From: Mobula hypostoma
Taxonomy: Eukaryota
Direction: 5' to 3'
DNA length: 64,000 nucleotides
Assembly (NCBI RefSeq): GCF_963921235.1
Contig: NC_086097.1
Location: 82,710,001 to 82,774,000, forward strand
The translations under genes and the position numbers were made by a program. Each line of letters begins with the position of its first letter. The stretch's first letter is position 1. Below, piece after piece: positions 5,304-62,814 of the stretch. Below the pieces are notes generated by a model. The model was not told where the DNA came from and did no database searches. It saw only the letters and a program-made list of their open reading frames with translations.

Positions 5304-5765
5304 AATGCACAAAAAATGCTGGAGGAACAGCATCTATGGGAAGGAATAGACAGTTGATATTAGCAGCAGCTACGGAGAGAAATAAAGAGTTGACATTTTG
5401 GCCCAGGACCAGAAAGGATAGGGAGAAAAAGCCAGAATAAGAAGGTGGGGGGAAGGGAAGGTGTACATACTGGAAGGAGATAGGCGAAGCCGGGTGAGCA
5501 AGGGAGGATGAAGTGAGAAGCATGAGGTAATAGATGGAGAAGGTAACAGGCTGATTAAGAGGGAATCAGATAGGAGAGGAGAGTGGCCCTTGGGTGAAAG
5601 GAAAGGAGTAGGGACGAGGTGATAGGCATGTGAGGAGAAGAGACGAGAAGGGGTAAGAGGTAATCCAGAATGCAGAATGGGGGGGGGGAGGGTAATTATC
5701 AGAAGTTGAAGAAATCAATGTTCATGCCATCAGGTTGGAGGCTACCCAAATGGAATATAAGGAGT
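5304..5765 (-). mobile_element. Penelope-like element 3' fragment (end of GIY-YIG region and pseudo-LTR)
   Basis: Reverse complement resembles the 3' part of 35004-35927 (ttgggtagcctccaacctgatggcatgaacattgatttc, pyrimidine tract, decayed pseudo-LTR). Confidence 0.75.
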
Positions 5766-6740
5766 ATTATATCAATTTTTAATTGAAGTTCTTTCATTGA
5801 AACTAATGAAATGGATGTCATGGCCATTATGTCAAAGATCTTACCAAAGGGCTATTAGACCCATTCAAAAAGGCATTCCATCTTTTGGAGTAAAGCGTAA
5901 CACCAGTTTGTCTAACCACAATGTATGAATGAGTCCATCTCTGAGAATGACAACAGCAGCTAATTATGTTTCTTCATTTCACAGGTAACAGCTGTTCATT
6001 CTTAACACCAATTTATGAAGCAGACAAATACTCTACTGACAGCTGTCCTGTCGCAGTGACGCAGCTGCTCCTTACACTTAAAGTGAAGTTTAGTAAATGA
6101 TTAACATCTTACTAATTCAGTCCATTGTCTAAAACAGATTTTAGTTTATAACCCAGGTTTTATGCTGACAGTGCAGACCAGCTTTATCATTTTCTATCTG
6201 TTAACTAACACAAAAGGTTAATTCTTGCTTTGTGAAATGGTTGAGGCATGTGTTAAATACATTATTGTCAATCCATGATTTTTATCTCACTGAAAAATAC
6301 ATTAATCTTAATAAAATCAGTGCAAACAAATTGGATGGCATTTAATAATGGAACAGATGGACTCCTCTGGAACTGATGGTTATGTGAGATAAACATGCCT
6401 TTTTTTTGTGGATTAATCTTGATACCAAACCACCTGTCCCTACATTGACTCAACCCATTGCTCTGTAGAGCCCATTTATGGTACTTATTTGATTCATCTT
6501 TTCTGACAACATTCTGCAAATGTGATCTTTTTTAAAGAGCATATTATGTGGATGAATAACTTTTTACCTGGAACCCAGCCATTTGAATCTTTAAGTGTTT
6601 TGAACAATTGCATATTTCATATTTCCTTACAACTTTGGTAAGTCTACAGCAGAGTTGGGATAATACCACAAATCCCATAAATTAACCCCACACTTGTGAG
6701 CAATCTATTCTCTTTTACACGTCCATCAACTTGCCTCTGA

Positions 6741-7872
6741 TTCACCTTTTTCAAAGAAAGCGGCTTCCGTTCCTCTACCATTAACGCTGCCCTCAACCGC
6801 ATCGCTTCCATTTCACACATGTCTTCTCTCACCCTGTCCTCTCGCCACCCTACCAGAGATGGGGTTCCTCTCATTGTCCCCTATCAGCCTCCGCCTCCAG
6901 CACATAATTCTCCGGAACTTCTGCCATCTCCAATGGGATCCCGCTACCAAGCATATCTTCCCGTCACACCCCCCTCCACTTTCTGCTTTCCGCAGGGATC
7001 ACTCCCTACATGACTCCCTTGTCCGTTCATCCCTCCCCACTGATCTCCCTTCTGGCACTTGTTCCGCTTGCAAGGATAAGGGCTACACCTGCTTCCTCAC
7101 TGCCATTCAGGGCAACAAACAGTCCTTTCAGGTGAGGTGACGCTTCACCTGTGAGTCTGTTGGGGTCATACACTGTGTCCAGTGCTCCTGGTGTGGCCTC
7201 CTGTATATTGGTGAAACCCAATGTAGATTGGGAGACTGCTTCGCTGAGCACCTACGCTCCATCTGCTAGGAGAAGTGGGGTCTCCCAGTGGTGACCTATT
7301 TTAATTCTACTTCCTGTTCTCATTCCGATATGTCAATCCATAGCCTCCTCGACTGTTGTGATGAGGCCTTACTTAGGTTGGAGGAAAAACACCTTATATT
7401 CCATCTTGGTAGCCTCCAATCTGATGTCATGAATATCCATTTCTCAAACTTCTGGTAATGCCTCCCCCCACCCCCACCCTTCTCCTTCACCATTCCCCAT
7501 CTGCTTTCTCAGCTCATATCTTTGCTTGCCCTCTGCCTCCCTCTGATGCTCCTCCCCCCTTTTCTTTATTTCATGGCCTTGTGTTCTCTCCTATTAGATT
7601 CCCCCTTTCCAGCTCTGAATCTCTTTCACCAATCGACTTCCCAACTCTTTACTTCACCCCTCCCCCCTCCTGGTTTCACCTATCACCTGGTGTTTCTCCC
7701 TCCCCCCACCTTCAAAATCTACTCCTCACCTTTTTTTCTCCAGTCCTGCTGGAGGGTCTCAGCACGAAACGTCGACTGTACTCTTTTCTATAGATGCCAC
7801 CCGGCCAGCTTAGTTCCTCCAGCATTTTGTGTGTGGCTTGGATTTCCAGCATCTGCAGATTTTCTCTTGTTT
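6741..7872 (+). mobile_element. Penelope-like (Neptune-type) element, 5'-truncated and degenerate
   Basis: Fragments LQHIILRNFCHLQWDPATKHIF..AFRRDHSL and FTCESVGVIHCVQCSWCGLLYIGET (GIY-YIG); pseudo-LTR with a decayed hammerhead at 7741-7778. Confidence 0.85.
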
Positions 7873-15329: not shown

Positions 15330-17093
15330 AATGACTATGCAATCTAGAACTATACATGAAGTTCAGGTGTGACCTATGGAAGGCTATGTTAAGAGTGTAA
15401 AAACAATTCTGATTGCTGTTAGAGACAGAATCCAATGCACAGCAGATGTGTCTGGATTTGCAGATCATAACTTCCTAAAAAGCAAATCTAACATCATGAA
15501 TGGCTGTGATGTTTCACTCCCAGATGAGCTCAATACTTTTTATGCACGCTTTGAAAGGGAGAATAAAACTCCACCTGTGTGAATCCCTGTAGCATCTGGT
15601 GACCCTGTGATTTCTGTCTCAGAGGCTGAAATCAGAACGTTTTTCAAGAGGATGAACCCTCACAAGGCGTCAGGTCCCGATAGTGTACCTGGTAGGGCTC
15701 TGAAAATCTTTGCCAACCAACTGATGGGAGTGTTCAAGGACATCTTCAGTCTCTTACAGCTACAGTCAAAGGTTACCACTGCTTCAAAAGGGTGACAATT
15801 GTACCAGTGCACAAGAAGAACAGGGTGAAAGGCCTCACCCAGTGACACATATCTATTGTGATAGAGTGTATTCAGAGGTTGGTCATGGCTAGAATCAACT
15901 CCCTCTTAAGCAAGGATCTGGTCCTGCTGCAATCTACCTATTGCCACAATAGGTTTACAGTGGATGTAATCTCACTGGCTTCCCACTCAGCCTCGGATCA
16001 CCTGGACAAGAGCAATACCAACATCAGGCTGCTGTTTATTGATTGCATTCAGCATTCAACACAACCATACCCTCAGTTCTAATCAACAAACTCCAGATAA
16101 TGGGCCCCTGTACCTCCCTCTGCTACTAGATCCTTAACTTTCTCACCAAGAGGCCACAGTCAATGCAGATCAGAAATAACATCTCCTCCTTGCTGACAGT
16201 CAACACTGGCACACCTCAAGGGTGCACACTTTATCCCATTGCTGTTTTCTCTACACCATGACTGAGTGGCTAGGCAGAGCTCAAACACCATCTATAAACT
16301 TGCAGATGACACAACTATTGTTGGCAGAATTTCAGATAGCGACAAGGAAGAGTACAGGAATGAGATAGATCAGCTGGTGGAGTGGTGTCATAATAACAAC
16401 CTTGCACCCAATGTCAGTAAGAGCAAGGAATTGATTGTGGACTTAAGGAAGGAGAAGTCAATGGAACACACACCAGTCCTCATGGTGGGATCAGCAGTGG
16501 AAAGGATGAGCAGTTTCAAATTCCTGGGTGTCAGCATCTCTGAAGATCTATCCTGTTCCCAACATATTGTTGCAATTACAAAGAATGCATGACCACAGCT
16601 GGAGTTTAAGATTTGTTACGTCACCAAAGACTCTAGAAAATTTCTACAGATGTACCATAGAGAACATTCTAACTGGTTGCATATCTGTCTGTTACCGAGG
16701 GCCACTGCACAGGATTGAAATAAGCTGCAGAAAGTTGCAAACTCCATCAGCTCCATCATGGGCACTAGCCTCCCTGGCATCGAGGACACTTTCAAAAGGT
16801 GATGCCTCAAAAAGGCAGCATCCATCATTAAGGACCCCATCGGCCATTACATACCCTCTTCTCATTGCTATATCACAAAGGAGGCACACACCCAATGTTT
16901 CTGGAACGGCTTCTTCCCATCCACCACCAGATTTCTGAATGGACAATGAATCCATGAATACTACTTCCCTATTTTTCCTCTCTTTTTCACTACTTAATTT
17001 AATATTTTTACATATTATGTATTGCAATGTACTTCTGCCACAAAACATCATATTTCACAAAACATGCCAGTGATATTAAATCTGATTCTGATT
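15330..17093 (+). mobile_element. Degenerate Rex1/Babar LINE
   Basis: SLPDELNTFYARFE, KASGPDSVPGRALK, IYKLADDTTIVGRI..EIDQLVEWCHNNNL; 3' tail (CTGATT)n near 17082-17093. Confidence 0.85.
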
Positions 17094-19653: not shown

Positions 19654-20839
19654 TGTCACAGTGGTGGGGCATTGGGAGCAAGGGTGGACCCAAATGCAAG
19701 ACACATCTTGTGAGGTTACTCAGATTTAGTTTATTGTTCGATACCAGGAGAGCAAGGCAGGAGCAGGAGTAGCGAACTGGACAAGGACTCAGGACTACGA
19801 CTAGGCTGGGACCAAGGGTCTGGGCTTGGGCTTGGAATCGGCTCCCAGAACTAGAGGAGACATGAAGATTCTAGGGTATGGACTCCGAGCCCGAGACTGG
19901 GCAAGGACCCAGTACCTGGGTCTTGCCTCGGGCTCGGACCCCAGAACCAGGCATGGACATGACATGGGCTAGGGAGAGGAGGAACCTGGGAACGCAGAGC
20001 CTCAGTCTTGGGAGAGCAGGTACATGGAACCATGGATACATACACAGAACACAGGGTCGGGACCCCTCCTTGGCTACAGGACATAGGGCCGGGACTCATG
20101 AACCACCGCGGGACAACGGCAAGACTGCCTGACTTACCACATGGAGGCGAGGACAAGACAAGACAAAACCAACACGAATGAACACCAGACAGTACCTATC
20201 TAGCTCCAGTGATGGAACTAGACTGAAGTGCAGGCGGGGGCTGCAGATGAGGGCTAGAGTCGAGAGGGGCAGAGAAGGGATTCAGACAAGGGGCCAGGAC
20301 TTGACTCAGAACTGGGAAGCCGCCAGGGCCAGGACTTGACTTGGTGCTAGAATGCCGCCAGGGCCAGGACTTGACTTGGTACTTGAATGCCGCCAGGGCC
20401 AGGACTTGACTTGGTGCTAGAATGCCGCCAGGGCCAGGACTTGACTTGGAACCTCCGGGTAGTGGCGAGCTCTCGACTCGACCCGGGAACAGTAGACAGC
20501 GGTTCTTGATTCCCTCCGGCAAGTTAACTGACGGACCCATCTCAGTGAGGAAACTTTGCAGGCTCGCTTTGGCAAGGTAACTGGACAGGGTTGCACCGGT
20601 GAGGAAGGCGAATTACCGGCACTCGCTTCGGCAGAGACTAGGCTTGCTCCGGCCAGATGACATTGCAGACGCTCCCGTGCCGAACGGCTGAAAGCCGGAC
20701 ACTATAAACTAACGGTTCAGCGGAGTGTTAATTGCCTCTAATCACCAAAGTCGAGGGACACGGGAAAACAGGGAATCAACGGTCCGGATCGTAACATAAA
20801 CAAGCTAAATTTAAAGGGACCCCAATCCGGACCATGACA
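19654..20839 (-). mobile_element. Solo LTR, 1186 bp, probably Gypsy-type
   Basis: Termini TGTCA...TGACA; perfect 5-bp TSD TCTGG (19649-19653 and 20840-20844); GC- and CpG-rich against AT-rich flanks; AATAAA on the minus strand at about 19730. Confidence 0.85.
20291..20449. repeat. 35-bp minisatellite inside the solo LTR
   Basis: Unit GCCGCCAGGGCCAGGACTTGACTTGGTGCTAGAAT starts at 20319, 20354, 20389 and 20424, with a partial copy at 20291. Confidence 0.95.
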
Positions 20840-27112: not shown

Positions 27113-29589
27113 ATAGAAACATAGAAACATAGAAAATAGGTGCAGGAGTAGGCCATTCGGCCCTTCGAGCCTGCACCGCCATTCAGTACAATCATGGCTG
27201 ATCATCCAACTCAGAACCCTGTACCAGCCTTTCCCCCATACCCCCTGATCCCTTTAGCCACAAGGGCCATATCTAACTCCCTCCTAAATATCTTAGCCAA
27301 TGAACTGGCCTCAACTGTTTCCTGTGGCAGAGAATTCCACAGATTCACCACTCTCTGTGTGAAGAAGTTTTTCCTAATCTCAGTCCTAAAAGGCTTCCCC
27401 TTTATCCTCAAACTGTGACCCCTCGTTCTGGTCTTCCCCAACATCGGGAACAATTTTCCTGCATCTAGCCTGTCCAATCCCTTTAGGATTTTATATGTTT
27501 CAATAAGATCCCCCCCTCAATCTTCTAAATTCCAACGAGTATAAGCCTAGTCAATCCAGTCTTTCATCATATGAAAGTCCTGTCATCCCAGGAATCAATC
27601 TGGTGAACCTTCTTTGTACTCCCTCTATGGCAAGGATGTCTTTCCTCAGATTAGGGGACCAAAACTGCACACAATACTCCAGGTGCGGTCTCACCAAGGC
27701 CTTGTACAACTGCAGTAGTACCTCACTGCTCCTGTACTCGAACCCTCTTGCTATGAATGCCAGCATACCATTTGCCTTTTTCACCGCCTGCTGTACCTGC
27801 ATGCCCACTTTCAATGACTGGTGTATAATGACACCCAGGTCTCATTGCACCTCCCCTTTTTCTAATCGGCCACCATTCAGATAATAATCTGTTTTCCTGT
27901 TTTTGCCACCAAAGTGGATAACCTCACATTTATCCACATTAAATTGCATCTGCCATGAATTTGCCCACTCACCTAACCTATCCAAGTCACCCTGCATCCT
28001 CTTAGCATCCTCCTCACAGCTAACACTGCCGCCCAGCTTCGTGTCATCCACAAACTTGGAGATGCTGCATTTAATTCCCTCTTCTCAGTCATTAATATAT
28101 ATTGTAAACAGCTGGGGTTCCAGCACAGAGCCTTGCATACCCCACTAGTCACTGCCTGCCATTCTGAAAAGGTCCCGTTTATTCCCACTCTTTGCTTCCT
28201 GTCTGCCAACCAATTCTCTATCCACATCAATACCTTACCCCCAATACCGTGTGCTTTAAGTTTGCACACTAATCTCCTGTGTGGGACCTTGTCAAAAGCC
28301 TTTTGAAAATCCAAATATACCACATCCACTGGTTCTCCCCTATCCACTCTACTAGTTACATCCTCAAAAAATTCTATGGGATTCGTCAGACATGATTTTC
28401 CTTTCACAAATCCATGCTGACTTTGTCCGATGATTTCACCGCTTTCCAAATGTGCTGTTATCACATCTTTGATAACTGACTCTAGCATTTTCCCCACCAC
28501 CAATGTCAGGCTAACCAGTCTATAATTCCCCGGTTTCTCTCTCCCTCCTTTTTTAAAAAGTGGGGTTACATTAGCCACCCTGCAATCCTCAGGAACTAGT
28601 CCAGAATCAAAAGAGTTTTGAAAAATTATCACTAATGCATCCACTATTTCTTGGGCTACTTCCTTAAGCACTCTGGGATGCAGACCATCTGGCCCTGGGG
28701 ATTTATCTGCCTTTAATCCCTTCAATTTACCTAACACCACTTCCCTACTAACATGTATTTCCCTCAGTTCCTCCATCTCACTGGTCTTAACCAATCTTTT
28801 TCTTTTCACATATCTATAAAAGCTTTTGCAGTCAGTTTTTGTGTTCCCTGCCAGTTTTCTCTCATAATCTTTTTTCCCCTTCCTAATTAAGCCCTTTGTC
28901 CTCCTCTGCTTGACTCTGAATTTCTCCCAGTCCTCAGGTGAGCCACTTTTTCTGGCTAATTTGTATGCTTCTTCTTTGGAATCGATACTATCCTTAATTT
29001 CCCTTGTCAGCCACGGGTGCACTACCTTCCTTGATTTATTCTTTTGCCAAACTGGGATGAACAATTGTTGTAGTTCATCCATGCGATCTTTAAATGCTTG
29101 CCATTGCATATCCACCGTCAATCCTTTAAGTGTCATTTGCCAGTCTATCTTAGCTAATTCACGTCTCATACCTTCAAAGTTACCCCTCTTTAAGTTCAGA
29201 ACCTTCGTTTCTGAAATAACTATGTCACTCTCCATCTTAATAAAGAATTCCACCATATTATGGTCACTCTTACCCAAGGGGCCTCTCACGACAAGATTGC
29301 TAATTAACTCTTCCTCATTGCTCAATACCCAGTCTAGAATAGGCTGCTCTCTGGTTGGTTCCTCGACATGTTGGTTCAAAAAACCATCCCGCATACATTC
29401 CAAGAAATCCTCTTCCTCAGCACCCTTGCCAATTTGGTTCACCCAATCTATATGTAGATTGAAGTCACCCATTATAACTGCTGTTCCTTTATTGCACACA
29501 TTTCTAATTTCCTGTTTAATACCATCCCCAACCTCAGTACTACTGTTAGGTGGCCTGTACACAACTCCCACTAGCATTTTCTGCCCCTT
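27113..29589 (-). mobile_element. Young 5'-truncated CR1 LINE (endonuclease to RT) with an in-frame internal deletion and frameshifts
   Basis: 563-aa ORF with GVVYRPPNS, MGDFN, SDHNMVEF, KSPGPDGLHPRVLKE and YLDFQKAFDKVPH; frameshift at the GVPQG motif (about 28138); (TTTCTATG)n tail. Confidence 0.95.
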
Positions 29590-32418: not shown

Positions 32419-33370
32419 GTTATGTTGCGACATAAATCGAAGATAGTGCCACTAAGGCTCATCTTAATGGTTATATGTGAAGATTCACTCACCAAGCACA
32501 TACACCTGACACATTCAGGCACATTGACCACATTTCTCATTTCTCATTTCTCATTCTTTTGAAAAGAAAATGATGGACAGCTTGCTCATAACTTATTGAT
32601 GTGTGTGACTGGTAGCAAAGCTCCCTCCTGGGAGCAAATATTGCAAAAAATTATTGTGTTGTGTGGCTCTGGAACCCCAACAACTGAACTCGGGACATCA
32701 ATACAAATTGATTTTAGTTGATGTCATATTACCATGATGCTGAAATGTTATACTGTTCGATACATCTTGTTTTGGCTACAGCAACAGCAATTTTAACTGT
32801 TTCTGTTCTCATGCTGGGAATCCAAGTTGCTCAGTTTGTGTGTTGAATAAACAGTGATGCAAAACTACTTCTGCTAATGTTACAAAAGCCACGGAAGGCT
32901 GCTGGACCAGACAGTATTCCTGGCAGTGTGCTTAGAGGACCTGCAGACCAGCTAGCTGAGATTCTTACTGACACCTTCAACATCTCCCTGAGCAGCGCCG
33001 TCATTCCTACATGCTTCAAGGCTGCCACCATCGTTCCCGTGCCGAAGAAGTCTTCAGTGTCCTGCCTCAACGACTACCGACCCGTCGCACTGACATCCAT
33101 CATCATGAAGTGTTTCGAGAGGCTCGTCATGAGGCACATCAAGACCCTGCTGCCCCCCTCACTGAACCCCCTGCAGTTCGCGTACCGTCCCAACCATTCA
33201 ACAGACGACACCATTGCCATCACCCTCCACCTGGCCCTAACCCACCTGGACAAAAAAGACATGTATGTTCGAAAACAACAGGAAATCTGCAGATGCTGGA
33301 AATTCAAGCAACACACATAAAAGTTGCTGGTGAACGCAGCAGGCCAGACAGCATCTCTAGGAAGAGGTGC

Positions 33371-33406
33371 AGTCGACGTTTCAGGCCAAGACCCTTCGTC
33401 AGGACT
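33371..33406 (-). ncRNA. Minimal type I hammerhead ribozyme motif
   Basis: Minus strand reads AGTC-CTGACGA-AGGGTCTTGGCCT-GAAAC-GTC-GACT: complete core, stem I AGTC/GACT, short stem II, palindromic ACGT helix III. Confidence 0.75.
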
Positions 33407-33414
33407 AACGAAGG

Positions 33415-33449
33415 GTCCTGACGAAGGGTCTCGGCCTGAAACGTCGACT
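33415..33449 (+). ncRNA. Minimal type I hammerhead ribozyme motif
   Basis: GTC-CTGACGA(33418-33424)-AGGGTCTCGGCCT-GAAAC(33438-33442)-GTC-GAC; predicted cleavage after 33445. Confidence 0.75.
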
Positions 33450-34211
33450 GCACCCCTTCCTAGAGATGCTGCCTGGATTGCTGCGTTCACCAGCAACTTT
33501 TATGTATGTTCGAATGCTGTTCATAGACTTCAGTTCAGCATTCAACACAATCATTCCTCAGAAACTGATTGGAAAGCTGAGCCTACTGAGCCTGAACACC
33601 TCCCTCTACAACTGGATCCTAGACTTCCTGACTGGGAGACCTCAGTCAGTCCGGATTGGAAGCAGCATCTTCAACACCATCACACTGAGCACAGGGGCCC
33701 CCCAGGACTGTGTGCTCAGTCCACCACTGTTCACTCTGCTGACCCACGACTGTGCTGCAACACACAGCTCGAACCACATCATCAAGTTCACCGATGACAC
33801 GACCGTGGTGGGTCTCATCAGCAAGAACGATGAGTCAGCATACAGAGAGGAGGTGCAGCGGCTAACGGACTGGTGCAGAGCCAACAACCTGTCTCTGAAT
33901 GTGAACAAAACAAAAGAGATTGTTGTTAACTTCAGGAGGACACGGAACGACCACTCTCCGCTGAACATCGACGACTCCTCCGTAGAGATCGTTAAGAGCA
34001 CCAAATTTCTTGGTATTCACCTGGCGGAGAATCTCACCTGGTCCCTCAACACCAGCTCCATAGCAAAGACAGCCCAGCAGCGTCTCTACTTTCTGCGAAG
34101 GCTGAGAAAAGTCCATCTCCCACCCCCCGTCCTCACCACATTCTACAGAGGTTGTATTAAGAGCATCCTGAGCAGCTCCATCACTGCCTGGTTCGGAAAT
34201 TGCACCATCTT

Positions 34212-34719
34212 AGAAACATAGAAACATAGAAAATAGGTGCAGGAGTAGGCCATTCGGCCCTTCGAGCCTGCACCGCCATTTATTATGATCATGGCTGATC
34301 ATCCAACTCAGAACCCCGCCCCAGCCTTCCCTCCATACCCCCTGATCTCCGTAGCCACAAGGGCCATATCTAACTCCCTCTTAAATATAGCCAATGAACT
34401 GGCCTCAACTGTTTCCTGTGGCAGAGAATTCCACAGATTCACCACTCTCTGTGTGAAGAAGTTTTTCCTAATCTCGGTCCTAAAAGGCTTCCCCTTTATC
34501 CTCAAACTGTGGCCCCTTGTTCTGGACTTCCCCAACATCGGGAACAATCTTCCTGCATCTAGCCTGTCCAATCCCTTTAGGATTTTATACGTTTCAATCA
34601 GATCCCCCCTCAATCTTCTAAATTCCAACGAGTACAAGCCCAGTTCATCCAGTCTTTCTTCATATGAAAGTCCTGCCATCCCAGGAATCAATCTGGTGAA
34701 CCTTCTTTGTACTCCCTCT
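34212..34719 (-). mobile_element. Young CR1 3' fragment, same family as 27113-29589, nested in Rex1
   Basis: EGVQRRFTRLIPGMAGLSYEERLDELGLYSLEFRRLRGDLIETYKIL..; (TTTCTATG)n tail; TCTT at both junctions. Confidence 0.95.
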
Positions 34720-35003
34720 TGAATCACAAGACCCTGCAGCAGATAGTGAGGTCAGCTGGGAAGATCATTGGGGTCTCTCTTCCTGACATTACAGACAGTT
34801 ACACCACACGCTGCATCCGTAAAGCAAACAGCATTATGAAGGACCTCACGCACCCCTCATACAAACTCTTCTCCCTCCTGCCATCTGGCAAAAGGCATTG
34901 AAGTATTCAGGCTCTCACGACCAGACTATGTAACAGTTTCTTCCCCCAAGCCATCAGACTCCTCAATACCCAGAGCCTGGACTGACACCAACCTACTGCC
35001 CTC

Positions 35004-35927
35004 CCCTCTCTCTGCTTTCCGCAGGGATCGCTCCCTACGTGACTTCCTTGTCCATTCGTCCCCCCCATCCCTCCCCACTGATCTCCCTCCTTGTAAGCGG
35101 AACAAGTGCTACACATGCCCTTACACTTCCTCCCTTACCACCATTCAGGGCCCCAGACAGTCCTTCCAGGTGAGGCAACACTTCACCTGTGAGTCGGCTG
35201 GGGTGATATACTGTGTCCGGTGCTCCCGATGTGGCCTTCTATATATTGGTGAGACCCGACGCAGACTGGGAGACCGCTTTGCTGAGCACCTACGCTCTGT
35301 CCGCCAGAGAAAGCAGGATCTCCCAGTGGCCACACATTTTAATTCCACATCCCATTCCCATTCTGACATGTCTATCAACGGCCTCCTCTACTGTAAAGAT
35401 GAAGCCACACTCAGGTTGGAGGAACAACACCTTATATTCCGTCTGGGTAGCCTCCAACCTGATGGCATGAACATTGACTTCTCTAACTTCCGCTAATGCC
35501 CCACCTCCCCCTCGTACCCCATCCGTTATTTATTTTTATACACACATTCTTTCTCTCACTCTCCTTTTTCTCCCTCTGTCCCTCTGACTATACCCCTTGC
35601 CCATCCTCTGGGTTCCCCCCGCCCAGTCTTTCTTCCTGGACCTCCTGTCCCATGATCCTCTCGTATCCCTTTTGCCAGTCACCTGTCCAGCTCTCGGCTC
35701 CATCCCTCCCCCTCCTGTCTTCTCCTATCATTTTGGATCTCCCCCTCCCCCTCCAACTTTCAAATCCCTTACTCACTCTTCCTTCAGTTAGTCCTGACGA
35801 AGGGTCTCGGCCTGAAACGTCGACTGTACCTCTTCCTAGAGATGCTGCCTGGCCTGCTGCGTTCACCAGCAACTTTGATGTGTGTTGCTTGGATTTCCAG
35901 CATCTGCAGAATTCCAGTTGTTTGCGT
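35004..35927 (+). mobile_element. Young 5'-truncated Penelope (Neptune-type) element with an intact GIY-YIG endonuclease frame and 3' pseudo-LTR
   Basis: Cys-rich linker CKRNKCYTC, then HFTCESAGVIYCVRCSRCGLLYIGETRRRLGDRFAEH..VATHF..RLEEQHLIFRLGSLQPDGMN, stop at 35494-35496; inserted in the Rex1 3' UTR. Confidence 0.95.
35790..35825 (+). ncRNA. Minimal type I hammerhead ribozyme motif in the Penelope pseudo-LTR
   Basis: AGTC-CTGACGA(35794-35800)-AGGGTCTCGGCCT-GAAAC(35814-35818)-GTC-GACT; predicted cleavage after 35821. Confidence 0.8.
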
Positions 35928-36459
35928 CTACTGTGCCTATTGTTTGGTTTATTATTCATTGTAATACCTGCACTGTTTTGTGTACTTTATGCAGTCCTGG
36001 GTAGGTCTGTAGTCTAGTGTAGTTTTGTGTTGTTTTTTTAGGTCAACTCATTCAGTGAGTTTTTGTATTGTTTATGTAGCACCATGGTCCTGAAGAACAT
36101 TGTCTCATTTTTACTGTGTACTGTACCAGCAGTTATGGCCGAAATGACAATAAAAATGACTTGACTTGACTTGAAAGTAGGACCTAACTTTGTCACCAGT
36201 GTTGTACTTTACACAGAATGTTGGTCGAATAATGTCATTTTAAATCATATTATTCAAATTTCAATAAAACCTAGTATAAGGAAACAGCACATATCTTATT
36301 TAAATATAAAAACACCTAGTTCTGTGGGAGTGAAAAGGAGAACTAATCAGAGGCATCCACTTTATGTTATGTTCGCTTTGCAGCAGTGATTTTGCTACGA
36401 AGTGATTTCATCTATTGATTTCATAGTGACTTCATCTACGAAGTGATTTCATCTATTGA

Positions 36460-39976: not shown

Positions 39977-42220
39977 CATAGAAACCATAGAAACTACAGC
40001 ACAGAAACGGGCCTTTTGGCCCTTCTTGGCTGTGCCGAACCATTTTCTGCCTAGTCCCACCGACCTGCACAGGGACCATATCCCTCCATACACCTCCCAT
40101 CCATGTATCTGTCCAACTTATTCTTAAATGTTAAAAAAGAACCCGCATTTACCACCTCATCTGGCAGCTCATTCCATACTCCCACCACTCTCTGTGTGAA
40201 GAAGCCCCCCCTAATGTTCCCTTTAAACCTTTCCCCCCTCACCCTTAACCCATGCCCTCTGGTTTTTTTCTCCCCTTGCTTCAGTGGAAAAAGCCTGCTT
40301 GCATTCACTCTACCTATACCCATCATAATTTTATATACCTCTATCAAATCTCCCCTCATTCTTCTATGCTCCAGGGAATAAAGTCCTAATCTAGTTAACC
40401 TTTCTCTGTAACTGAGTTTCTCAAGTCCTGGCAACATCCTTGTAAAACTTCTCTGCACTCTTTCAAACTTATTTATATCCTTCCTGTAATTTGGTGACCA
40501 AAACTGAACACAATACTCCAGATTCGGCCTCACCAATGCCTTATACAACCTCATCATAACATTCCAGCTCTTATACTCAATACTTTGATTAATAAAGGCC
40601 AATGTACCAAAAGCTCTCTTTACGACTCTATCTACTTGTGACGCCACTTTTAGGGAATTTTGTATTTGTATTCCCAGATCCCTCTGTTCTACTGCACTCC
40701 TCAGTGCCTTACCATTAACCCTGTATGTTCTACCCTGGTTTGTCCTTCCAACGTGCAATACCTCACACTTGTCTGTATTAAACTCCATCTGCCATTTTTC
40801 AGCCCATTTTTCCAGCTGGTCCAAGTCCCTCTGCAGGCTCTGAAAACCTTCCTCACTGTCTACTACACCTCCAATCTTTGTATCATCAGCAAATTTGCTG
40901 ATCCAATTTACCACATTATCATCCAGATCATTGATATAGATGACAAATAACAATGGACCCAGCACTGATCCCTGTGGCACACCACTAGTCACAGGCCTCC
41001 ACTCAGAGAAGCAATTCTCTACCACCACTCTTTGGCTTCTTCCATTGAGCCAATGTCTAATCCAATTTACCACCTCTCCATGTATACCTAGCGACTGAAT
41101 CTTCCTAACTAACCTCCCATGCGGGACCTTGTCAAAGGCCTTACTGAAGTCCATGTAGACAATATCCACTGCCTTCCCTTCATCCACTTTCCTGGTAACC
41201 TCCTCGAAAAACTCCAATAGATTGGTCAAACATGACCTACCACGCACAAAGCCATGTTGGCTCTCCCTAATAAGCCCCTGTCTATCCAAATGCTTGTAGA
41301 TGCTGTCTCTTAGTACTCGCTCCAATAACTTACCTACTACCGACGTTAAACTCACTGGCCTATAATTTCCCGGATGATTTTTCAATCCTTTTTTAAACAA
41401 CGGAACAACATGAGCCACTCTCCAATCCTCCGGCACCTCACCCGTAGACAGCGACATTTTAAATATTTCTGCCAGGGCCCCCGCAATTTCAACACTAGTC
41501 TCCTTCAAGGTCCGAGGGAACACTCTGTCAGGTCCCGGGGATTTATCCACTTTAATTTTCCTCAAGACAGCAAGCACCTCCTCCTTTTCAATCTGTACAG
41601 TTTCCATGATCTCACTACTTGATTCCCTCAATTCCATAGACTTCATGCCAGTTTCCTTAGTAAATACAGACGCAAAAAACCGATTTAAAATCTCCCCCAT
41701 TTCCTTTGGTTCCGCACATAGCCGACCACTCTGACCTTCAAGAGGACCAATTTTATCCCTTACAATCCTTTTGCTCTTAATATACCTGTAAAAGCTCTTT
41801 GGATTATCCTTCACTTTGACTGCCAAGGCAACCTCATGTCTTCTTTTAGCCCTCCTGATTACTTTCTTAAGTATTTTCTTGCACTTCTTATACTCCTCAA
41901 GCACCTGATTTACTCCCTGTTTCCTATACATTTCATACAACTGCCTCTTCTTCTTTATCAGAGTTGCAATATCCCTTGAGAACCAAGGTTCCTTATTCCT
42001 ATTCAATTTGCCTTTAATCCTGACAGGAACATACAAACTCTGCACTCTCAAAATTTCCCCTTTGAAGGCTTCCCACCTACCAATCATATCTTTGCTAGAG
42101 AACATCCTGTTCCAATTCACGCTTTTTAGATCCTTTCTCATTTCTTCAAATTTGGCCTTCTTCCAGTTCAGAACCTCAACCCAGGACCAGATCTATCCTT
42201 GTCCATGATCAAATTGAAAC
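39977..42220 (-). mobile_element. Young 5'-truncated CR1 LINE with an uninterrupted 696-codon ORF2 segment (40051-42141) covering the whole RT domain
   Basis: KSPGPD, NYRPVSLTS, QHGF, YMDFSKAFDKVPH, SGVPQGSVLGPLLF and KFADDTK all intact; (TTTCTATGG)n tail; the endonuclease domain is missing. Confidence 0.97.
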
Positions 42221-45084: not shown

Positions 45085-46803
45085 GCTGTGAACATGGAGG
45101 AACCTTCACAAACTCCCATGACCCCTGATGACCCTGTAATTTCAGTCTCTGAGGATGACATCGGAGTATCCCTCAGGAGGGTGAACCCGCTGAAAACATC
45201 TGGCCCAGATGGCTGAGTACTAAAGACCTGTGCTGACCAACTGCTAGTGTGTTAATTGATTTTAACCTCCCACTTCAACATCTGAGGTACCCACCTGTAT
45301 CAAGCAAGCTTCAATTATACCAGTGCCTAAGAAGAACATGATAATCTACCCCAATGACTATCATCCAGCAGCACTGTACATCCACAGCGATAAAGTACTT
45401 TGAGAGATTGATGAAATATATCAAGCTGAGAAGTGACTTGGATCCGCTCCAACTTGCCTACAGGCACAACAGGTCCACAGAAGATGCCATTTCATTGGCT
45501 CTTCACTCAGCACTGGAACATCTGGCCAGCAAAGTTAAGTATATCAGGATGCTTTTTTATCAACTACAGCTTGGCATCCAATACTATTATCCCCTCAAAG
45601 CTAATCAATAAGCTTCAAGACCTGGGCCTCAATACCCCTTTGTGCAACTGGATCCTTGATTTCCTCACTTGCAGACCCCCCCCCCCCACCCCCCAGTCAG
45701 TTCAGATTGGCAACAACATTTCCTGCACAATCTCCATCTGCACAGGTGCACCATGAGGCTGTGTGCTTAGCCCCCTGCTCTACTTGCTTTACACTTATGA
45801 CTGTAAGGCTAAGTGCAGCGCCAATGGTATATTTAAATTTGCTGACAACACCCTTGCTATTGGCCAAATCAACGGTGGTATAAATTAGCGCTGAGGCTGG
45901 ATATTGAAAATCTGGCTGAGTGGTGCCATACCAACAACATTTCACTCAACGTCAGCAAGATCAAGGAGCTGTATGTAGACTTCAGGAGGAAACCAGAGGA
46001 CAGTGAGCCAGTTCACATCGGGGGATTAGAGGAAAACTTTAAATTCCTCAGTGTTATCATTTCAGAGGATCTTTCCTGGGCAATTTTGAAGAAAGCACAG
46101 CAGCACATCTACTTCCTTAGAAGTTTGCTAAGATTCGGCATGATACCTAAAATTTTGACAGATTTCTATAGATGTGCAGAAGAGAATATATTGAGTGCAT
46201 CATGGCCTGGTATGGAAATGCAAATTACCTTGAATGTGAAATCCTACAAAAAGTAATGGGTACAGCCCAGCCGACGAAGGGTAAAACCCTCCTCAACACG
46301 TCTACACAGATTGCAGAAAGCAGGAAAGCAACATCCATCATCAATCGCCTCCACCTCCTTGACTAAGCTCTCTACTCACTGCTGCCATCAGGAAGAAGGT
46401 ACAGGAACCTCAGGACCCAAACCTCCAGTTTCAGGAACAGTTTTTACTGTTTAACCATCAAGCTCGTGAATCAGTCGGAATAACCTCTCAAGTTCACTTG
46501 ACCCATCGCTGAACTGTTCCCACAACTTATGGATTCACTTTCAAGGACTCTTCATCTCATGTTCTTGATATTTATTGCTTATTTATTTATTTATTTATTT
46601 ATTTATTATTTCCTTTTTCTTTTGCATTTGAACAGTTTGTTGTCTTTTGCACCTTGGTCGTTTGTCTGTCCTGTTGGATTTATTCTTTCATTGACTCTAT
46701 TATGTTTCTGAGATTTTCTGAGCATGCCGGCAAGAAATCAAATCTCAGGATTGTATTCGGTGGTATACATATATTTTGATAATAAATTTACTTTGAACGT
46801 TGA
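45085..46803 (+). mobile_element. Degenerate Rex1/Babar LINE
   Basis: VISVSEDD..RVNPLKTSGPDG and [30 protein letters not shown]; (ATTT)n in the 3' UTR; tail actttgaacgttga. Confidence 0.85.
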
Positions 46804-60400: not shown

Positions 60401-60609
60401 CATTTGGTTATGACACATACATACTTTGAAATAAATGTACTTTGAAATAAATGGCATTTTTTTCTTTTATATTTTAATACTGTAATATTGCTACTGTTCT
60501 ACTTCAAAGATTTTCTTTTGGAAACAAAGATTCAAAATGCCAAACTTCAAATATTTGGTTAACGTTTGAAAGCTTTTGCATGAACCAGAGTGAATCATCC
60601 CTGTACATA

Positions 60610-62035
60610 AGAGATTCTACAGGTGGTGGAAACCCAAAAACAACGCACCACAAAATGCTGGAACAACTCAGCGGGCCAGGCAACATCTATGAAAATGAAT
60701 AACCAGTCAACATTTTGGACAGAGAACCTTCATCAGGACTGGAAAGAAAGGGGGAAGATGCCAGAATACGAAGTTGGGAGGAGGAGGAGTAGGACAAGCT
60801 AGAAGGTGATAAGCAGTGAAGAGAAGGGGTAAGAAGCCAGACTCGGGAAATGAAAAAGAGGGAAGGGGGAGGGAAGGAATTACCAGAAGGAGGTGAAATC
60901 GATATTCACACCATCAGGTGGAGGCTACCTGAACGGAATATGAGGTGTTGCTCCTCCAACATGAGCGTGACCTCATCGTGGCAGAAGAGGAGGCCATGGA
61001 TGAAGGGGAATGGGGATAGGAATTGAAATGATCATCCACCAGAAAATTCAGCTTTTTGCAAATAGAGCTGAGGTGCTCAACAAAGCAGTCCCCTGATCTA
61101 CACTGGGTCTCACCAATACAGAGCAGGCTGCATCATGAGCACCGCATACAATAGATGACCCCAACGGATTCACAGGTGAAGTGTCGCCACACCTGAAAGG
61201 ACAGTTTGGGGCCCCGAATGGAGGGAAATGTGCAGGTGTAGCACTTCTTCCATTTGCAGGGATAAGTGCCAGGAGGGAGATTAGTGGGGAGGGTAAAGGG
61301 AATGGTCAAGGGAATCATAGAAGGAGTGATCCTTGTGGAAAGCGGAGAGTGGGGGAGAGGTAAAGATGTGTTTGGTGTAGGGCTCCATTGAAAATGGCAG
61401 AAGTCACAGAGAATGATGTATTCGATGCAGAGACTCATGCAGAGACGGGGGTGTGGGTGGTAGGTGAGGACGAGGCGAATTCTATCCACGTTGAGGTGGC
61501 GGGAAGATGGGGTGAGCATGCATGTCTGGAAAATGGAGGGGATGCGGGTGAGGGCACCAGCAATAGTGGAGGAAGTGAAGTCCTGCTCTTTGAAGAAGGA
61601 GGATGACTCTGATAACCTGGAAAGAAAGATTTATCCTAGGAACAGATGCGATGGAGGCAAAGGAACTGAGAAAAGGGAATAGCATTTTTACAGGATACAG
61701 GGCGGAAAGAGGTATTGTCAAGATAAGACTGGGAATCGATAGGTTTATAAAACATGTTTGTTGACAGTTTGTTTCCAGCGATGGAAACAGAGAGATTGAG
61801 AAAGGGGAGACAGGTGTCAGAAATGGACCAAGTGCATTTAAGGGCAAGGTGGAAGTTGGAGGTAAAGTTGACGAAGTTGATGAGCTCAGCATGGGGCATG
61901 AAGCAGTATCAATGCAGTTGTCAATGTAGTGGAGGAAAAGTTGGGGAGGATTATCGCGGAAGGGTTCAATCATGGACTGTTCCATATAGTCAACGAAAAG
62001 GCAGGCATGGCTAGGGCCCATGGGGGTGCCCACCT
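60610..62035 (-). mobile_element. Degenerate Penelope element (RT, GIY-YIG and pseudo-LTR)
   Basis: MGTPMGPSHACLFVDYMEQ..LFLHYIDNCI (Penelope RT), LPFLNLSVSI..FYKPIDSQSYL, HFTCESVGVIYCMRCS; decayed hammerhead at 60703-60742. Confidence 0.9.
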
Positions 62036-62580
62036 AGAGTCTATTGTTTCTGCTGCTCCTGATGCGGCCTCATCTACATTGGGGTGCTGCTTTGTCGAGC
62101 ACCTCTGCCCCATCTGCCAAAACATTCCAGTGGCCAACCATTTTAATTCTTATCTCCATTCATATTCTGTCTAAGCAGCCACCAACCAGATGCCACGAAC
62201 ATTGATTTCTCCAACTTCTGTTAATTTTTTCTCCTCCGTTTCCTTCTTCCTTCCCTCTTACACCTTCTCCTTGCCTGCCTATTACCTCTCCTGGTGTCCC
62301 TTCTCCTTCCCTTTCTCGCATGATCCACTCTCCTCTCCTATCAGATTCCTTCTTCTCCAGCCCTTTACCGCTTCCACCTATCACCTCCCTGCTTCTTACT
62401 TCATTTCCCCTCCCCCACCCACCTGATTTCACCTATTACCTTCTAGCTTGTCTTCCATCTCCTCTCCCCCGCTTCTTATTCTGGTATCTTCCTCCTTCTT
62501 TTCCAATCTTGATAAAGTCTTGGTCCAGATTCATTTCCATAGCTGATCTGCTGAGTCCCTCCAGCATTTTGTGGATTGTC
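62036..62580 (+). mobile_element. Inverted Penelope 3' segment joined to the 5' end of the minus-strand copy
   Basis: CFVEHLCPICQNIPVANHFNS (GIY-YIG C-terminal part), pyrimidine tract and decayed pseudo-LTR (ctgctgagtccctccagcattttgtg). Confidence 0.75.
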
Positions 62581-62814
62581 CATGTCCAATTTTGAAGAAC
62601 ACATCTATAATATGTACCTGCTGATGTTTGATGAGATAGCAAATAACATAACAAAATAGGTTTGATTTTGTTAACGTGACCTAGCTCTGCCATAATGCAA
62701 GAGAATATCACACAGTAATATTTCTTTTGTGGAAGATTATGATCTTCTTAATAAAACAAAAGACATTGTAAAATTAAAAAAAACAAAATAAATCAAACTA
62801 AACTGTCTCATGAC

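Follow-up and report, generated by a model that had tools for sequence, protein, structure and literature searches.

A 228-bp insert (33274-33501) splits the reverse transcriptase (RT) frame of a LINE, folds back on itself over most of its length and carries a hammerhead motif in each of its two halves, raising the question of whether it is the trace of one severely truncated Penelope integration or a copy of a mobile ribozyme hairpin. A first-pass annotation of the window (the whole 64-kb stretch of DNA analysed) had left both readings standing. We examined the insertion site, the parts of the insert and their relatives in the window, the two hammerhead motifs and the junction at the centre.

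The insert is flanked by an exact 13-bp direct repeat, ATGTATGTTCGAA, found at 33261-33273 and again at 33502-33514, with a chance probability of ~2e-8 for a fixed pair of sites. The repeat, which serves as the target-site duplication (TSD), lies within the frame of a LINE that we take to be Rex1 or Rex1-like:

33261-33273, plus strand: left copy of the TSD, identical to the right copy at 13/13 positions
33502-33514, plus strand: right TSD copy, which over its first 9 nt matches the continuation of the element at 8/9 positions
32847-34218, plus strand: RT frame of the host LINE (presumably Rex1-like), split and frameshifted by 241 added bases

Pfam matches to RVT_1 and ALKBH8_N in the host fit a LINE RT, and the RVT_1 match is divided at the insert, with positions 1-67 mapping to its left and 70-205 to its right. 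After the 241-base frameshift, a stop lies at 33318-33320. Once the insert and one TSD copy are removed, the host frame is continuous without loss or gain, and two LINE relics elsewhere in the window (15780-16607 and 45378-45599) align gap-free across the insertion point; the empty site is judged from this frame continuity and these paralogue alignments, not from an empty allele. The insert itself has no ORF. The first-pass annotation had described a 228-bp insert without coding sequence that splits an RT frame and is framed by a 13-bp target duplication, and in each of these respects it was borne out.

Within ~3 kb, the same LINE relic (32847-35990) has taken up, besides the hairpin insert, two more younger insertions: a CR1-like 3' fragment (34211-34719, minus strand, 94% identical to 27114-27626), with the host frame resuming past 34719, and a solo Penelope 3' fragment (35000-35922). 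Elsewhere in the window are a CR1-like RT stretch (40498-41592, minus strand), ~370 codons of which aligned stop-free in the displayed tblastn match, and a tandem repeat (20291-20452) with a period of ~70 nt and 92% identity.

The insert itself resolves into two Penelope copies in opposite orientation and the junction between them:

33274-33414, minus strand: sense, 5'-truncated Penelope copy of 136-141 nt, made up of pseudo-LTR (pLTR) and tail (blastn, 94.4% over 142 columns against 35781-35922)
33274-33309, minus strand: Penelope tail of 36 nt (45 nt if 33310-33318 is counted), at this end only; it ends at the 3' terminus that recurs in the family
33405-33430, plus strand: inversion junction, with 5 native nt, 8 complementary nt and a restart 13 nt back
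33415-33501, plus strand: inverted, tail-less pLTR copy of 87 nt (to 33510 with the microhomology), 95% identical to 35791-35876

Read along the minus strand, the order is the inverted tail-less pLTR (87-96 nt), the junction, the sense pLTR and the 36-45-nt tail. The inverted arms, 33310-33405 and 33415-33510, are 96 nt long and 94% complementary across a 9-nt spacer, and 87 nt of each lie within the insert proper. The spacer had been given correctly at first pass, whereas the arm length of 91 bp reported with it included four letters of the TSD. The description of the insert as palindromic likewise holds for its near-perfect inverted arms but not for the whole, because the 36-45 nt at the left end, the Penelope tail, are unpaired. 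Either strand was expected to fold into a long hairpin, and this was confirmed by z-scores of -22 (plus) and -28 (minus), with 0/200 shuffles folding as well on either strand; the tail is unpaired in the minus-strand fold.

The arms differ from each other at 5/87 positions, in 4 events, and both have two letters that are absent from a neighbouring copy of the element (35000-35922, described below). One of these letters accounts for 5.3 of 21.9 million depth in sequencing run X1, which was compared with the neighbour (35000-35990), not with the insert, and the organism of which may differ; the second was not among the 40 rows listed for that run, 281 more being outside the listing. The shared letters fit a single donor, but one active master would produce them just as well.

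Relatives of the insert in the window include a young copy nearby and an older pair of copies:

35000-35922, plus strand: neighbouring 5'-truncated Penelope copy with GIY-YIG, 3' UTR, pLTR and tail, and no inverted arm
60606-62585, copies on both strands: older head-to-head Penelope pair, composed of a minus-strand copy with tail (60606-62040) and a tail-less plus-strand copy (~62040-62585)

The neighbouring copy lies 2.3 kb from the insert, which is 94% identical to its terminal part (35781-35922). Its GIY-YIG domain scores just below the Pfam cut-off (E=1.4e-4; 22.5 bits against 22.6), but cysteines of the CCHH type are present. The frame has a CX4CxxC linker and a CxxC between GIY and YIG. 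The linker, CKRNKCYTC in the frame 34840-35496, conforms to the CX2-5CxxC pattern that is described as preceding GIY-YIG in Neptune and Nematis and as absent in Penelope/Poseidon (Craig et al. 2021, PMC8557442). On this sequence evidence, we assign the arms to the pLTR, the 3' end, of a Penelope-like element (PLE) of Neptune type; the linker motif by itself would admit either Neptune or Nematis. The RT of this young parent family is absent from the 64-kb window; the old copy at 60.6-62.0 kb has a decayed RT-like peptide, recognised by eye only.

Among the seven Penelope 3' ends in the window, four have the tail (33274, 35922, 7872 and ~60606), with the same terminus in the insert as at the other three, and the remaining three (33501-33510, ~62585 and ~5309) stop in a GT-rich stretch before it. 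The old pair has the geometry of the insert with its junction elsewhere, far from the pLTR; its arms, of 1.43 and ~0.55 kb, are ~69% alike. A loose search allowing up to 2 mismatches found no TSD for the old pair or for the neighbouring copy, and since the arms of the pair are so dissimilar and its TSD was not found, it may represent two events. The same search returned a 14-nt candidate with 2 mismatches for the 7.8-kb copy and a 10-nt candidate with 2 mismatches for the 5.3-kb copy, which may be chance. These last two copies are old Penelope 3' fragments (5309-5768, minus strand, without tail; 6745-7872, plus strand, with tail) that lie 1 kb apart and point away from each other, with non-Penelope sequence between them. 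No other short two-armed copy was found within the window.

In PLE insertions as laid out by Craig et al. (2021, PMC8557442), an inverted 5'-truncated copy lies next to the 5' end and a 30-40-bp tail is found at one end; Arkhipova et al. (2013, PMC3846280) describe inverted pLTRs, a 31-bp tail and 9-10-bp TSDs. The insert shows the corresponding features of an EN+ PLE: its sequence belongs to a pLTR whose parent element has a C-terminal GIY-YIG, its 5' truncation is accompanied by an adjacent inverted copy, a tail of the 30-40-bp kind is present at one end only (36 nt; 45 nt without the microhomology), and a TSD goes together with an empty site supported by frame continuity and gap-free paralogues. 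It is a real, young, dead and minimal instance of the standard inverted PLE insertion, a very short copy in a known layout, and therefore an ordinary example rather than a new kind of element.

Each arm contains one hammerhead motif:

33371-33406, minus strand: minimal type I hammerhead of the left arm, predicted cut between 33375 and 33374
33414-33449, plus strand: minimal type I hammerhead of the right arm, predicted cut after 33445

Inspection agreed with the first-pass annotation that the core is intact in both arms, each on its own strand (C3-A9, G12-A15.1, U16.1 and C17). Both motifs have 4-bp helices I and II, one additional A following position 9 and a palindromic helix III that lacks a loop, so that core, short helices and helix III are those of a minimal PLE hammerhead (min-HHR). 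At the G10.1-C11.1 pair of that description, both arms and the neighbour have G.U; a C allele at this pair makes up 12.6 of 31.2 million depth in run X1. Because an Rfam search at E<=1 returned no hammerhead family at the insert, the motifs were assigned by inspection, with the published description of min-HHRs as the reference. Three sub-gathering matches from that search were discarded, mir-297 as a microsatellite, mir-3547 as the hairpin itself and SOX2OT as chance.

Each strand has a single motif, transcribed after its own antisense copy. To judge from their structure, the hammerheads of the insert are of the minimal, dimer-only type, for which Cervera and De la Pena (2014, PMC4209133) describe a single motif as being without cleavage. 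The pair probabilities of helix II, 0.72-0.80 in the isolated right arm, drop to <1e-15 in the insert on both strands and also in prefixes ending just past the motif; the minus-strand sense unit taken by itself, with part of the junction still attached, already gives values of <=0.002. The hairpin is predicted to sequester both hammerheads. A cut at the predicted site, 33375, would release a 101-nt RNA without the inverted arm, so that an active hammerhead would take the unit apart and could not be what defines it. A match between the truncation and the ribozyme cut site was also considered and rejected, as both copies begin 30-40 nt upstream of the cut. As modelled, the insert is inert, having no ORF and one dimer-only hammerhead per strand buried in a ~90-bp duplex; read-through as part of a host transcript would supply double-stranded RNA only.

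At the centre, 33405-33409 are native sequence and 33410-33417 are the exact complement of 33390-33397, after which the right arm restarts 13 nt back and generates a 13-nt tandem duplication (33405-33417/33418-33430). With 8 nt copied across a weak palindrome and a 13-nt slip, the centre is thus explicable without a single untemplated base. A simpler alternative for the spacer is possible from the sequence, namely native sequence with one base lost. Tested as a strong self-priming hotspot, the centre proved weak: its palindrome folds back with -2.4 kcal/mol and ranks 34/880 among the possible cDNA ends in the neighbour (65/880 with a 40-nt window), while the exact end required by the slip model has +2.5 kcal/mol and ranks 538/880 with a 30-nt window, or -2.5 kcal/mol and 61/880, via a different fold, with a 40-nt window. 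The self-duplex ranks at the centre were 187-497 of 880. Near this weak palindrome, junctions may arise repeatedly. Among the 880 positions, the strongest hairpin at a cDNA 3' end is at 35018-35020, 15-20 nt inside the 5' truncation point of the neighbour; it may be an RT pause site or due to chance.

At the tail-less end, the single mismatch between the first 9 nt of the right TSD and the continuation of the element would be a G.T wobble; the first-pass suggestion that part of the TSD may be microhomology with the end of the element proved right. Matches as good were found for 409/20,000 random 9-mers of the window when allowed anywhere in the unit, and for 27/127,982 window sites at this specific position. 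Such rarity suggests that the tail-less end was fixed at this locus, and in combination with a centre that can be explained from its template, it makes it most likely that the palindrome was built during integration. The inner, tail-less end (35850-35895 in the neighbour; 33305-33330 in the insert) falls within or next to the loop of a 6-bp stem-loop predicted for the element RNA; the fold is not significant (z of -1.4 and 0.3) and recalls the stem-loop at the start site of Poseidon from Anolis carolinensis (PAc).

We regard it as highly probable that the insert derives from one retrotransposition event of a young Neptune-type PLE, in which both copies were trimmed to approximately the pLTR. 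What was observed comprises the parts and how they are oriented, the TSD, the frame of the empty site, a tail on one side and a junction that can be fully templated; from these, we infer the remaining mechanism as follows. The GIY-YIG endonuclease would nick both strands of the LINE target, 13 nt apart, and the top-strand end would serve as primer for reverse transcription that starts where the tail of the RNA ends and stops after ~136 nt. The second arm would be made within the same event as the first. Granted a single event, we lean towards double priming, in which the bottom-strand end would pair with the RNA over 9 nt, including one G.T, and prime at the second, internal start site of the family. 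Joining of the two short cDNAs would follow at the weak palindrome with which the hammerhead begins, their 3' ends pairing across it: 8 nt would be copied, the end would slip back 13 nt and copying would resume. On the same premise, a fold-back version is a serious though somewhat less probable candidate; here the first cDNA would fold on the palindrome, copy itself and join the target by the same microhomology.

Double priming would explain why the arm ends at a recurrent inner site and must assume that homology aided the priming, whereas folding back would explain the homology and would make the position of the end a coincidence. According to Frangieh et al. (2024, PMC11167929), priming does not depend on homology with the target, so double priming does not require the microhomology. 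In the same study, the PLE tail is the stretch between two RT start sites; in vitro, a PLE protein both cleaves and extends the two strands of the target, and insertion does not require hammerhead cleavage. Palindromes at inverted junctions have been read as self-priming (Arkhipova et al. 2013, PMC3846280). We put forward only tentatively that junctions like that of this insert record double target-primed reverse transcription from two internal start sites. The first of the two possibilities raised at first pass, an extreme 5'-truncated, inverted Penelope insertion, was supported by every test that we ran; the second, a ribozyme-hairpin family, gained no support and has mechanistic problems, with one dimer-only hammerhead per strand that is predicted to be sequestered.

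Under that second possibility, the insert would be a fixed palindromic unit from a master locus, copied whole in trans by the Penelope RT/GIY-YIG as a member of a non-autonomous fold-back family. We consider this improbable. Such a unit would keep the tail end where the RT starts, which the minus-strand fold leaves unpaired; pLTR sequence alone can mobilise cargo in trans (PMC3846280), non-autonomous PLE derivatives have been published, and the Penelope family is very abundant in a related organism, with 259,645 contigs of run X1 matching the neighbouring copy (35000-35990). However, the hammerhead cannot define the unit, as its cut leaves 101 nt without the inverted arm, most of the pLTR would be locked up in a -171 to -183 kcal/mol duplex, target microhomology is found just at the right end, no second copy exists within 64 kb, and the junction was not among the 24 distinct joints listed for run X1, a weak test in that 378 and 188 more rows were outside the listing and the run possibly comes from another species. 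Summed depth in that run reached 26-34 million in the pLTR core, 14 million in the tail and 2.5-20 million in the body; this is not a copy number and includes older subfamilies, and the difference between core and tail is in line with many tail-less ends. Among the joints listed, those that start from 35863 and 35900 (depth 118 and 310.5, respectively) both arrive at 35790, where hammerhead helix I begins, with one letter between; the deepest one listed (698) connects 35394 to 35549 and contains a TA run. The pattern of the insert had 0 matches in viral contigs, metagenome contigs and prokaryote genomes, which are not expected to contain the host. Besides X1, three raw-read runs (X21-X23), none of the four being RNA, were compared with the neighbouring copy; these three gave 0 reads and carry no weight as a test. 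A family of this kind, if real, would amount to an RNA-mobilised, MITE-like hairpin seeding double-stranded RNA across a cartilaginous-fish genome, and a shared junction would mark a new form of non-autonomous PLE derivative.

A two-step origin, in which a truncated solo end of Penelope would have been in place before the mirror arm was added by replication or repair fold-back or by an adjoining second insertion, is very improbable. It could draw on the differences between the arms (5/87 positions, in 4 events) and on the solo Penelope ends seen in the window at 5.3, 7.8 and 35.9 kb, yet both arms sit inside a single exact TSD, with the host frame recovered without loss or gain, the arms share the two letters absent from the neighbour, and the geometry is that of the published single-integration product (PMC8557442, PMC3846280). 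Least credible of all is an assembly or library artefact from a chimeric fold-back read. PLE hairpins do trouble short-read assemblies (PMC8557442), and no run held the whole locus, the best word share of 32900-33900 being 0.59 among the 24 runs listed; but such an artefact would give identical arms, whereas these differ at 5 positions, and it would not leave a TSD from which the RT frame can be recovered, as is the case here.

As a single locus, the insert matters little, being a dead and tidy example of a published insertion pattern. It is useful as a mechanistic fossil, with a clean TSD, two near-identical arms and a junction that can be read base by base. Junctions of this type are what is needed to tell fold-back self-priming from double target priming, a choice left unsettled in the portions of the PLE literature drawn on here (PMC8557442, PMC3846280, PMC11167929, PMC4209133). 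One insert cannot decide between the two; thousands of young copies could.

Outside PLEs, the insert resembles the products of LINE-1 twin-priming, which have an inverted 5' segment within one TSD and microhomology at the junction; LINE-1 inversions, however, join non-overlapping parts of one RNA, whereas both arms of the insert are the same segment. Like non-LTR retrozymes (Li, Clavereau and Pollet 2026, 10.64898/2026.07.22.740005), it is non-coding, derived from a PLE pLTR and equipped with a type I hammerhead. Retrozymes are described there as head-to-tail tandem arrays with at least two hammerheads on one strand, whereas the insert is arranged head-to-head and is not counted among them because it has one motif per strand. 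Metazoan PLEs carry dual min-HHRs ~100-700 bp apart and on opposite strands (Cervera and De la Pena 2014, PMC4209133); compared with the motifs described in that work, helix II of the insert has only 4 bp and closes with G.U in place of the conserved G10.1-C11.1, and the motifs are predicted to be sequestered.

Closer parallels are found among the PLE insertions themselves. With PAc, as described in PMC11167929, the family shares two recurrent 3' ends 30-45 nt apart, an AT-rich target and an inner 3' end in a predicted stem-loop downstream of the hammerhead. It departs from PAc in that the parent has the CX2-5CxxC linker of Neptune/Nematis, which is absent in Penelope/Poseidon, and in that the inner end matches its target at 8/9 nt, whereas PAc primes without homology. 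When set against the EN+ PLE inverted-repeat insertions, namely Pen2a_Av and its relatives (PMC3846280, PMC8557442), the insert differs in being cut down to the pLTR (228 bp, no ORF) and in having a TSD of 13 bp and a junction with a 13-nt slip duplication. In common with them, it has head-to-head pLTRs, a one-sided tail, a short TSD, a palindrome at the inverted junction and a non-LTR retrotransposon as its target.
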